Source: Octopus vulgaris
Taxonomy: Eukaryota
Length of the DNA stretch: 64,000 nt
NCBI GenBank assembly: GCA_951406725.2
Contig: OX597814.1
Span: forward strand, 33,480,001-33,544,000
Reading direction: 5' to 3'
The stretch's first letter is position 1, and every line of letters begins with the position of its first letter. Below are positions 6,722 to 42,745 of this stretch, in pieces. The position numbers and the translations under genes were made by a program. The notes under the pieces were generated by a model, which worked only from the letters and a program-made list of their open reading frames with translations, had not been told where the DNA came from and did no database searches.

Positions 6722-6898
6722 TATATATAGATGTAAAAATGTACGATATATATATATATATATACAGTGTACATTTAAACACATAAGAGATGACCATCAT
6801 ATGACACCTAGCACGCTTGAAGGAGTAGCCAAAATCCAAACCACTATTAGGGAGAAATTTCGAGGGGAATGAAAATATAAGCATTTACTATTTATCTC

Positions 6899-6968
6899 GT
6901 GAACCATGATTTCGAACGCTAAATTAGTAAATAAAGTAATTTGCAAGAAGGAGCTCTCTTCAGCAGGG
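6899..6968 (-). ncRNA. Type I hammerhead ribozyme (mirror copy, slightly decayed)
   Basis: Reverse complement reads CTG CTGAAGA GAGC...GTTC GAAA TCATGG TT CAC. Confidence 0.65.
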
Positions 6969-7312
6969 ACGCCAAGATAAACATAAATACGACGCAATAC
7001 AGTATATGCCTCGTGCTTATATGTAATAACTTTTCAAATCCACCGCGCAAGCGCAGTTTGTCGGCAACAAATAAAAATAATGCCGGCATTTCTTCAAAAA
7101 TTTGCCAAAAATTATCCGTAATTAAATTTTTTCCTACCCTAATATTTATTAATAATTGATAAGTTTTGGCAAGTTTTCGAAAACATGCCAGCATTATTTT
7201 TATTTGCTGACGACAAAAAGCTGCGCTTGCGCGGTGGATTTGAACAAGTTATAATATATAAGCACGAGGCATATACTGTATTGCCTCGTATCTATATGTT
7301 AATCTTGGCGTG

Positions 7313-7382
7313 TCTGCTGAAGAAAGCTTCGCCTAGCAAATTGCTTTATTTGCTAATTTAGAGTTCGAAACCATGGTCCAGG
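7313..7382 (+). ncRNA. Type I hammerhead ribozyme
   Basis: Stem I CTG/CAG; CTGAAGA core; extended stem II; GAAA; palindromic stem III ACCATGGT; GUC cleavage site. Confidence 0.8.
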
Positions 7383-7709
7383 AGATAGATTGTAAATGTT
7401 TTTATTTTCATTCTCTTCGAAATTTATCCTTAATAGTGGTTTGGATTTGGCTATTCTTTCTAGCGTGTTAGTGTCCTGTGATGGTTATTTCTTATGTGTT
7501 TAAATATACACTGTATTTATATGAATAATATATAGTCTATTGACTAATTTTCTGCATGCTAGGCCACTGGTAGTAAAAAATTTCTAAAATTTTGCCTTAC
7601 CCTGATATATGTATCTTTGTGTGTGCGTGTGTGTCCACGCATCACCACTTGACAACAAGTGTTGATGTGTTTACTTCCCGTAACTTAGCGTAAAGATAGA
7701 TAGATAGAT

Positions 7710-11440: not shown

Positions 11441-11705
11441 TATTTATGTGTGTGTCTGTGTTTGTGTATATCCCCACCACCAAGGCTTGACAACCGATGT
11501 TGGTGTGTCTACGTCCTCGTTATCTAGCGGTTCGGCAAAAGAGAACGATAGAATAAGTACTAGGCTTACAAAGAATAAGTCCAAGGGTCGATTTCTCCGA
11601 CTAAAAGACCCTTTAAAGCTGTGGTCCAGCATGGCCGCAAACAAATGACCAGAACAATAAAAGAAAAAGAAAAGAATACATACATATGTACATAAATATA
11701 TATAT

Positions 11706-11761
<56 letters not shown>

Positions 11762-12019
11762 GGATAATATTATCTAGTGGCCAGCATGGGAATAAATACC
11801 ATACAAAGGTAATACATTTTTACAACTATAAATAATGATATCTCATGGTGCGATATGAACATTTTAGGTGGTTTTTAGAGTCAGGGTTTTAACTGTTATT
11901 TCGGCATGGTGGTGTCTCTCAGATATCTTTATTTATAGTTATATATATATATATATATATATTTTATATACTTACATACATATATATATATATATATATA
12001 TAGATATATATATATATAT

Positions 12020-12084
<65 letters not shown>

Positions 12085-20947: not shown

Positions 20948-21458
20948 AGTTCTATATTTAAGAGATGAGGAATGATGTACATTGTTTACATTGCTTACAT
21001 TTGACGGATATTTGTCCTTATCTTGTTGGTTATTAACACAATGTTTCGGCTGATATATAATAGATAGAGAGCATAACTGGAAAATACGAAAACTAAAAGA
21101 AGCATCACATATGTTAGGACACAAAAACCTCTTAAGCAGACTGAGTGCAGATATATGTAGCATATGGGATCCAGCATTAAGGAAGGATAGGAAAATATTA
21201 GGTTTATAAGCTCTAAAATTCACTCCATAGTCGCCTACGGGCATATGGCATAGTGGTTAAGATCGCGGGCTACTAACCCCAAGATTCCGAGTTCGATTCC
21301 AAGCAGTGACCTGAATAATAATAATAACATCGAAAAATACTTCAGGAATGAGAACCCAGGTTCGAAATTTCCCCAAGACACCTGATGAAGGCTGGAGGGT
21401 GTATCCGCCGAAACGTTGTGTTAACAACAAACAAGATGGGGACAAATATCCGTCAAAT
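20948..21458 (+). mobile_element. tRNA-module plus HHR element preceded by an inverted copy of its 3' end
   Basis: tRNA-like 21239-21312; HHR 21377-21422; 20948-21056 is the reverse complement of the element tail; second copy at 41921-42262. Confidence 0.85.
21377..21422 (+). ncRNA. Minimal type I hammerhead ribozyme (PLE type)
   Basis: gacac CTGATGA a GGC...GCC GAAA CG TT gtgtt; loopless palindromic stem III (ACGT). Confidence 0.85.
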
Positions 21459-22504
21459 CTGGAGTTAGTTTGGTATTTGTTTGGGATTGATTCAGGGCTG
21501 ATTTCTTTCTGTCTCTTAGTCAAGAGAGAAGGCAATACCTATGATTCTATGTTAAGCCTCCGAAACAGGTGGGAGAAAGTTCAGGGAAGAAAGTATACTC
21601 AAAAGCCTGATCCGAAGACTTGCAACAGATGGGACTCTACGAAAAGTACCCATGATGCCTGGTGGTGATATATTTTATCTTTTACTTGTTTCAGTCTCCT
21701 GACTGCAGCTATGCTGCGGCACCACCTTCAAATGTTTTACTCGAACGAATCGACTCCAAGATTTTTTTAAGGCCTGGTACTAATTCTCTCGGTTCTTTTA
21801 CCGAACCGCTAAGTTACAGCTGTCAGGTGATGTTCGGGGTTAGTTTGGGTTGGTTTGTATTTGGTACCTGCATTGGTTTCAACATAGTGTGGTGTTGGTT
21901 TTGCAATGGTATAGGGCTGGCTTAGGTTAGCCTGTAGGTGTTTTGATGTTTGTCTTGGGTTGGTTAGGAATCGTTTTATAACCGGTTCAAGTTCCTTTTC
22001 CAGGTGGTCATACTCTTGTTTTATTTTTACTGTTTTTATCGTTCTTTCAATATATTTCTAAAATCTTTTTTTAAATATCTTGAGTTTCTTGGTTATTTAT
22101 TTTTCTTCTTTTAAAATCTCTCCCAGTGTTGTTTTTCTTACCGTGCCATTTCCTTCTTCTTCTCTCTTTTTTTCTTGTTCTCCTTTTCGTTTAAATATTC
22201 TTTTTTCAAATCTTCCACATTGCCTGCTAAACTTTTATTTAATATTTTTCTTCATTTCTTTTCTGTTAATTTTTTTTTTCTTTTTGATCTCTAAGTATAC
22301 ATGTGTGTGAATGCATGATGTTTTTTATATTCATTTACTTATTTTAGATTAGATGCTGACATGACACCAAAACAGGGAGATTATATTTTCTTTATATTCG
22401 CTTTTTTAGTGTGGAGGCGCATGGCTTAGTACTTAGGATTTTGCACTCATTATTGTTCGATTGTGGTTTCGATTCTTGGACTGAGTAATGCGTTATGTTC
22501 TTAA

Positions 22505-41300: not shown

Positions 41301-41920
41301 GTCAGTCAGTGTTAGCATGTTGGATCATTCTACTAATATTTAACATTTATTATACCTGAATTGACAAAACGGAATATGATATGAATATGCTCTGTAATGA
41401 AATCCGTAACGCTTTCGTCCAACAATCGAATCCTGTGACTGAACCTCTTATACCACAAAGTGCTGCTTGTAATGCTTAATGTTTACATTTAAAAGCCGGC
41501 ACAATCTTCTTAATGTTCACTTAGAAGAATTTTTCTAGTATTAGAACCGCGTATTTCTTGTCTATGGATGGTGAGTCTAGTTCACAGGGTAAGTTTCGTT
41601 TGTCCTGCGTAATCTCCCTTATAATCATTACATTCAATAGCATGAAATAAATTTTTCACCAAGGTCACAGAATCGTTAACATGCTAAGCATTTTGTCCAT
41701 ATTTATGTCCTGAATTCAAATACTACCGAGGTCGACTTTGCCTTTCATCATTTCGGAGACGATGAAATAAAACGCTCAATTACCGGGATCGATGTAATTG
41801 ACAAGTCCCCTGGCCCAAAATGTCAGGCCTTGTGCCAAAAGTAGACAGGATTATTTAAAGTAAAATCTGATTAATTAATCCTAATTAGTTAATTCGGGAA
41901 TTTGTTACAAAGAAATAAAT

Positions 41921-42104
41921 ACAGTTCTATATTTAAGAGATGAGGAATTATGTACATTATTTACAATTGACGGATATTTGTCCTCATCTTATTTGTTGTT
42001 AACACACCGTTTCGGCTGATGTACCCTCCAGACTTCATCAAGTGTCTTGGGGAAATTTCGAACCTGGGTTCTCATTCCTAAGGTATTTTTCGATGTTGTT
42101 GTTG

Positions 42105-42156
<52 letters not shown>

Positions 42157-42262
42157 CTTGGGGTTAGTAGCCCGTGCTCTTAACCACTACGCCATATGCC
42201 CGTGGGCTATTATGGGGTGAATTTTAGGGCTTATATATCTAATATTCTCCATGTGGTTCCTT
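41921..42262 (-). mobile_element. Second copy of the tRNA-module plus HHR element (HHR mutated, box B deleted)
   Basis: Reverse complement aligns with 21178-21458, including about 60 bp upstream of the tRNA module, and its tail matches 20948-21056. Confidence 0.85.
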
Positions 42263-42424
42263 AAATTTTTTTACCAAATTCAATTAATGGACGGTGGCTA
42301 TTTCTAGTCATCATTTGGACTACATAACTTATTTCAACGTACGTTATTTCAATCTATACGTATCTAATGGTTCAGTTAACTTTTTTTGCACAACACCTGC
42401 TTTACACCAGTATACATACACATG

Positions 42425-42745
42425 TGCGGGTGAGCTTAGCGCTTAGGGCATTCGGCTCACGATCTTAAGGTTGTGAGTTCGATTCCCGGCGATGCATTGT
42501 GTCCTTGAGCTAGACACTTTATTTCACGTTACTCCAGCCCTCTCAGCTGGGAAAATTTAGTTACGCCTGTTATTCAAAGGAGTCAGACTTATCATATTCT
42601 CTGTCACACTGAATATCCCTTGGGATGACGTTAAGGGCACGCATGTTTGTGGCGTGCTCAGCTACATGTACGCTGATTTCATGAGCAAGCTGTCCCGTTG
42701 ATGGGATCAACTGAAACCCTTATCGTAACCGACAGAGTGCCAGTT
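42425..42745 (+). mobile_element. Degenerate family B-related SINE
   Basis: Homologous to 54787-55098. Confidence 0.7.

Follow-up and report, generated by a model that had tools for sequence, protein, structure and literature searches.

The window, the whole 64,000-nucleotide stretch of Octopus vulgaris DNA analyzed here, carries two copies of one repeat family, which are laid out in Table 1. At the locus under study, the plus strand reads, in order, the stop codon of an open reading frame (ORF), 30 nt, a tRNA-derived module, an (AAT)n microsatellite, an ATG, a predicted hammerhead and two 3′ end sites. As originally predicted, an inverted 3′ end precedes the unit: positions 21055–20999 pair with 21402–21458 (89.5% over 57 bp), and the arm carries the 3′ tail out to 20948. 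The A and B boxes had been placed about 65 nt upstream of the hammerhead. This spacing is valid only for the end of the module, which lies 64 nt before stem I (21313 to 21377), because box B is separated from the hammerhead core by 81 nt.

Table 1. Features of the locus and of the second family copy in the window.
Feature	Position	Strand	Basis
Inverted, 5′-truncated second arm: hammerhead 3′ half and terminal tail, ending ...TAAATATAGAACT	20948..21058	−	Self-alignment
Coding remnant: last 49 codons and TAA of RT + GIY-YIG ORF, Penelope/Poseidon-type	21060..21209	+	C-terminus matches 569-aa stretch of L228 and aligned relatives
Inferred RNA 5′ end region, ~6 nt before tRNA +1, 13 nt before box A	21233..21238	+	5′-end pile-up; start site inferred
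tRNA-derived module, without cloverleaf	21239..21313	+	Alignment to tRNA gene; boxes A and B
Box A TGGCATAGTGG	21246–21256	+	Motif
Box B GAGTTCGATTCC	21289–21300	+	Motif
(AAT)n microsatellite, length highly variable among copies	21314..21328	+	Copy comparison
pLTR copy of ORF N-terminus, ATG at 21348, MRTQVRNFPKTPDEGW...	21348..21458	+	In frame with ORF where pLTR precedes ORF
Putative minimal type I hammerhead, predicted cut after 21417	21377..21422	+	Descriptor match
Hammerhead core: CTGATGA; GAAACGTT	21382–21388; 21410–21417	+	Motif
Hammerhead stem I; extra A; stem II (one mismatch)	21377–81/21418–22; 21389; 21390–94/21405–09	+	
Hammerhead palindromic CG at 15.2/16.2		+	As in PLE minimal ribozymes
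Family copy 2: 62 nt upstream of module, box A without box B, two changes in hammerhead core, complete tail	41921..42264	−	

The second copy had been predicted to share about 60 bp upstream of the module with the first, and we measured ~62 nt, the similarity of 42264–41921 reaching back to window position 21177. Its box B has gone through expansion of the (AAT)n, and its hammerhead core carries two changes (C3 and U16.1). No obvious target-site duplication was seen by eye at either window copy. A MITE with terminal inverted repeats was ruled out, as the arms at the locus are unequal 3′ ends of a Penelope-like element (PLE) and no such arms occur in the second copy. The second copy lies between two further SINE-like repeats (window 42420–42520 and 41715–41830), the former with a tRNA-type head resembling that of this genome's tRNA-headed SINE family. 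The window also holds long self-inverted repeats unrelated to the element (6743–7536, 806 bp, 83%; 11684–12081, 415 bp, 68%).

The parent element and its hammerhead

Could the unit be part of a larger, coding element? The 150 bp upstream of the module hold the final 49 codons of the ORF, which encode the end of a GIY-YIG domain, and a walk upstream through genomic copies recovered an RT, a DKG motif and an open stretch of 569 aa (locus L228), relatives being ~830–850 aa long. The L228 stretch matches RVT_1 with an E-value of 2.7e-6 (27.7 bits, slightly under the 29.6 cut-off), and of 7990 sequences scored, 2735 are homologs at E ≤ 1e-30. The motif VYSIPCSCG.LYKGET...EH aligns with the GIY-YIG of the relatives; PF01541 stands on 3 of the 120 homologs listed, and Pfam made no GIY-YIG call in L228 itself. 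The autonomous PLE that the original prediction suggested looking for is therefore at hand: it has an RT + GIY-YIG ORF, and the shared 3′ tail is its pLTR.

Furthermore, 25 of the 30 loci chosen by the 5′ end of the ORF have a direct copy of the pLTR tail immediately before the ORF start, which is the partial tandem of PLEs. Of nine such copies with a recognizable ATG (window 21348), six keep the reading frame into the ORF and three are frameshifted; the N-terminus of one locus (L235) matches that of the full-length relative P0003 (47%, E 2e-18). In the 29 loci selected by the module, the PLE tail follows directly behind the module in 23, and an inverted tail lies upstream in 16; an inverted copy with a one-sided tail is typical of the group (PMC8557442). 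The family shows the features of EN+ PLEs, namely a PLE-type RT, a GIY-YIG domain, the pLTR partial tandem, an inverted arm with a one-sided 30–40 nt tail and a minimal hammerhead structure, and the locus is a member of these elements, most likely in the Penelope/Poseidon clade. Judged from its sequence, the unit belongs to the autonomous PLE, of which it forms the 3′ end and pLTR, and is not a separate non-coding ribozyme element; the same reading places the module in the pLTR, ~110 nt before the ATG used in the tandem copies. The original prediction had envisaged a Pol III-driven ribozyme retroelement mobilized by PLE RT; copying by PLE RT stands and a Pol III-type promoter is probable, and the separate element served in trans gives way to the ORF C-terminus and pLTR found here.

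The RT–EN linker of the family lacks the CxxC pair that a second PLE family in the genome has. An extra Zn-finger-like linker between RT and EN is a trait of Neptune and Nematis. The second family is younger (L157:4417-6074, L351-L370; ~97% between copies), and has a frame of 770–777 aa with a CxxC linker as in Neptune; in its pLTR, a hammerhead-like core is preceded by motifs resembling CCAAT and TATA boxes. The GIY-YIG end of a third PLE family was seen at L219:1-330, and a first look at the genome gave 902 candidates.

A descriptor of the minimal hammerhead matched once in the window and not at all in 200 base shuffles. In PLE minimal ribozymes, one additional base sits between A9 and G10.1, and the 15.2/16.2 pair is palindromic (PMC4209133). 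The core, the extra base and the palindromic pair are all present, so that the PLE type predicted for this motif is borne out. The same descriptor matches 8 of the 12 related families tried, in which the stem sequences differ. Free folding of 21340–21460 was no better than that of shuffles (z −0.34), and single minimal hammerhead motifs are inactive according to the same source (PMC4209133). By its sequence, the hammerhead overlaps the coding N-terminus of the ORF, since the ATG is in frame in the copies counted above and the N-terminus matches P0003. The hammerhead-encoded peptide TPD.G...PKRC is retained at the N-termini of distant relatives (P0003, P0029), which suggests that the ribozyme overlaps the coding start across the lineage.

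The predicted cut lies 70 nt after the ATG, and the 3′ ends of copies cluster instead at +120 to +139 and at +160 to +163. A retrozyme or Sm-alpha type of element, in which cleavage within tandem repeats sets the ends of the unit, was ruled out, as the ends do not map to the predicted cut. One locus of retrozyme-like layout was observed (G000:C30:17291632-17292563; L325, L348), with five head-to-tail copies of the hammerhead tail at a period of ~195 bp; at least one unit of this array starts at (AAT)n without the module.

The tRNA-derived module and the 5′ boundary

Over its full length, the module is colinear with the genome's tRNA-Arg(TCT) gene and agrees with it at 48 of 75 columns (z 8.3), in a comparison that covered 24 tRNA genes in 16 loci. 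As the other candidate source, the heads of a SINE family in this genome gave at best 51 of 76 columns. Neither ARAGORN nor Rfam (at the gathering cut-off and at E ≤ 10) called a tRNA or a hammerhead at the locus or in copy L047. In a folding test, the module formed no cloverleaf and had no acceptor stem; relaxed ARAGORN calls were inconsistent between module copies, and a relaxed tRNA pattern search matched just one copy of the element. A separate locus (L457) has seven tRNA genes or relics, mostly Cys, clustered in 3 kb.

The genome assembly sampled comprises 2.8 Gb in 227 contigs. It was sampled in 100 tiles of 10 kb each, set at even distances. Matches occurred in 18 of them, one match being only 22 bp long, and the remaining 17 tiles were counted; scaled up from 17 per Mb, this extrapolates to a family of roughly 50,000 insertions. 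A second set, selected by the tail, consisted of 116 fetched loci, or 104 distinct ones after 12 duplicates were dropped. The module is present in 73 of these 104 loci and in 12 of the 17 tail-bearing tiles. Most hammerhead tails thus have the module, and a one-off SINE insertion, the origin that would have undone the original prediction, was ruled out. A piece of the ORF occurs in only 1 of the 17 tiles and 8 of the 104 loci. The short copies look like tRNA-derived SINEs, with a tRNA-related head bearing boxes A and B at their 5′ end, but they are PLE end repeats.

Where do the copies begin? We numbered 5′ ends from tRNA +1 in 97 module-bearing segments of the tail-selected loci. The segments are not all independent, since one locus is duplicated and some insertions contribute both of their arms. 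Only 6 ends lie beyond −30. Another 12, at −21 to −14, are mostly mirror junctions, which imitate the upstream sequence; 33 fall between −10 and 0 and 21 between +1 and +10. Further inward, 15 lie between +11 and +20, an internal inverted repeat accounting for some of them, and 10 beyond that. The random tiles gave 2 of 16 ends beyond −30 and 9 of 16 at −10 to +10. At the loss rate within the module, ~75 of 89 would be expected past −30, compared with the 6 of 97 observed, and this deficit far exceeds what the non-independence of the segments could explain. The loss rate within the ORF end is ~0.26% per nt (29 loci). Consistently, 5′ ends pile up 13–14 nt before box A (71 rows), and agreement with the long element drops to background 14–15 nt before it. 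These results show that a hard 5′ boundary sits 13–14 nt before box A. The tRNA-headed SINE family of this genome begins 11–12 nt before its own box A (32 copies).

The original prediction held that the module is internal and the unit therefore no SINE head. This does not hold for the family: most copies start at the module, and the prediction was misled because both window copies belong to the minority that extends past the boundary. Of the five upstream pLTRs that clearly reach the module, two pass the boundary (L234, L248), which counts against the model presented below. RNase P cutting of a tRNA-like fold is an unlikely cause of the boundary, as the ends lie 3–7 nt upstream of tRNA +1 and there is no acceptor stem.

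A short palindrome, GCCC-AC-GGGC, lies at the boundary in the family. It is conceivable that the boundary is no RNA end at all and that most copies are shortened here by RT stalling or by cDNA folding back on this palindrome, on which common mirror junctions are indeed centered. However, many of the ends between −7 and +10 show no mirror and adjoin either unrelated flank or another part of the element; the region forms no strong hairpin, and its folding is not more stable than that of shuffles (z −0.6 to +1.5); and a stop that removed more than 90% of cDNAs would presumably cripple an autonomous element. We regard RT drop-off at the palindrome as very improbable, and it is the least likely of the rival explanations.

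3′ ends and the origin of the short copies

Measured from the ATG, in loci selected without regard to their 3′ end, 40 of 82 3′ ends fall in the first of the two clusters given above and 32 in the second. A LINE-type 3′ end (A-rich or simple-repeat tail) is not present; the ends are two PLE end sites. In anole Poseidon, the RT was shown in vitro to start within uncut RNA, 111–118 nt past the ORF start, using two sites that delimit the tail (PMC11167929), and the two 3′ end clusters of the octopus family match these two start sites. If RT starts internally as it does there, both short and ORF-bearing products could come from one RNA.

Alternatively, the short copies might be an independent SINE lineage with master loci of its own, whose Pol III transcripts would be copied in trans by the protein of the PLE. 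In favor of this, short copies with their start at the module form the majority. Over the module, the short copies are also slightly less diverged than the long ones (6.9% vs. 9.1%, n 96 and 46), and one non-CpG site differs in allele frequency (57 of 96 vs. 18 of 46, P 0.03), although the P values are uncorrected and the pools were picked by different queries. Against this, no fixed diagnostic letter separates the 96 short from the 46 long segments in the 65 positions tested, and the minimal RNA of anole Poseidon needs ORF sequence beyond the RT start sites, which is absent from copies ending there (PMC11167929). We consider a separate SINE lineage rather unlikely.

Promoter, polymerase and known systems

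We consider it likely that the locus is a 5′-truncated, tail-to-tail copy of an autonomous Penelope/Poseidon-type element, and that the tRNA-derived A/B-box module in its pLTR acts as an internal promoter, probably for Pol III. In this model, the RNA of the pLTR–ORF tandem would start at the 5′ boundary, set by the module, and would run through the ATG and the uncut hammerhead into the ORF. The element's RT would initiate internally, ~120 or 160 nt after the ATG. Initiation in the first pLTR would run off at the RNA 5′ end and give a SINE-like copy of 270–300 bp as the common product, whereas initiation in the downstream pLTR of a read-through RNA would give ORF-bearing copies such as the window locus. 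Fold-back of the cDNA end on the GCCC/GGGC palindrome would be frequent and would leave the mirror junctions at the boundary.

Could Pol III read the whole protein-coding unit? We put this forward tentatively, as a possibility more doubtful than the model itself: the entire 2.6 kb would be transcribed by Pol III from a captured tRNA-type promoter, TTTT would have been purged from the sense strand, and the SINE-like copies would be a by-product of internal RT initiation. The sense-strand majority has no TTTT in 2624 nt, individual natural long copies having 0–4 each. The probability of this absence is 0.008–0.01 by base shuffle, 0.035 by synonymous shuffle, 0.05 by control codon usage and 0.08 under a dinucleotide model, and GGGG is likewise absent (P 0.03). 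The second PLE family, which served as the control, has 11 TTTT in 3180 nt. Among 26 related families (metagenome loci, 80 clustered, those below 1200 nt dropped), two are without TTTT over ~1.6 kb, the group total being 199 compared with 138 expected; none of the 26 has an A/B-box pair behind the ORF, several having little downstream DNA. The TTTT absence is suggestive only and weakly favors Pol III reading of the whole ORF.

In three RNA-seq runs from one study (~6% of each run), depth was equal on both strands and tracked genomic copy number, and read starts did not pile up at the boundary or at the hammerhead cut site. Uncapped Pol III RNA is a poor mRNA. The boundary could instead be a Pol II start of the pLTR, with the module captured by chance or helping through TFIIIC binding; a capped RNA would solve translation, and CCTTAG|GAATG before the ATG resembles a weak splice acceptor. 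The promoter of D. virilis Penelope lies in the pLTR and is internal, TATA-less and LINE-like (PMC2377424), and the octopus module appears, by analogy, to occupy the place where Penelope keeps it. On the other hand, the boundary lies at a SINE-like distance from box A, the 120 nt upstream of it hold no TATA motif, and no intron-like skip between the module and the ATG was found among the RNA-read joints listed. A Pol II start thus seems to us quite improbable, and a promoter of probable Pol III type remains our preferred reading.

The element resembles D. virilis Penelope (PMC2377424) and the anole Poseidon PAc (PMC11167929) in having RT and then GIY-YIG in one ORF, a promoter-holding pLTR in partial tandem, an ORF start at the hammerhead, two 3′ ends ~35–40 nt apart (the tail) and an inverted 5′ arm. 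It differs in that its pLTR starts with an A/B-box module, whereas theirs has a LINE-like promoter, with an intron in Penelope, and the available text of these sources mentions no tRNA-derived module. Schistosome Sm-alpha and Sj-alpha likewise carry a type I hammerhead behind a Pol III-type promoter, but they are described as non-coding tandem units freed by ribozyme cleavage (PMC6765202), unlike the present coding element with ends off the cut site; the Sm-alpha precedent of the original prediction thus applies to the order of the parts and not to the ends. Cassandra TRIMs and, by title, Helenus/Ajax (PMC10886601) also have a small-RNA-gene promoter in the terminal repeat that sets the RNA start, but these are non-autonomous LTR elements and not an autonomous PLE with a 2.5-kb ORF. 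Animal non-LTR retrozymes share the short hammerhead-bearing units in animal genomes; theirs are canonical hammerheads in tandem repeats of 170–400 nt (PMC7229834), whereas here the form is the minimal one of PLEs and the copies are mostly dispersed. The tRNA-headed SINE family of octopus has a similar head and a similar distance from 5′ end to box A, with a different body and tail. Ohshima and Okada reportedly described three tRNA-derived SINE families of octopus in 1994. The published papers searched, in the portions available, do not describe a tRNA-derived module in the pLTR of a PLE; the family may be recorded in repeat collections such as Repbase, Dfam and SINEBase or in the library behind PMC13282606. 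The element is an EN+ PLE, most likely of the Penelope/Poseidon clade, with an unusual promoter module.

PLE promoters have been characterized in very few elements, and here tens of thousands of dead copies place the likely RNA start within a few bases, at a SINE-like position. Annotators may misread the short copies of this PLE end repeat as tRNA-derived SINEs. Were the polymerase Pol II, the family would represent promoter capture inside an otherwise ordinary PLE. If it is Pol III, a start unusual for a protein-coding gene, SINE-like repeats would arise without a LINE partner, and how an uncapped RNA yields a protein of 800 residues would become the question.
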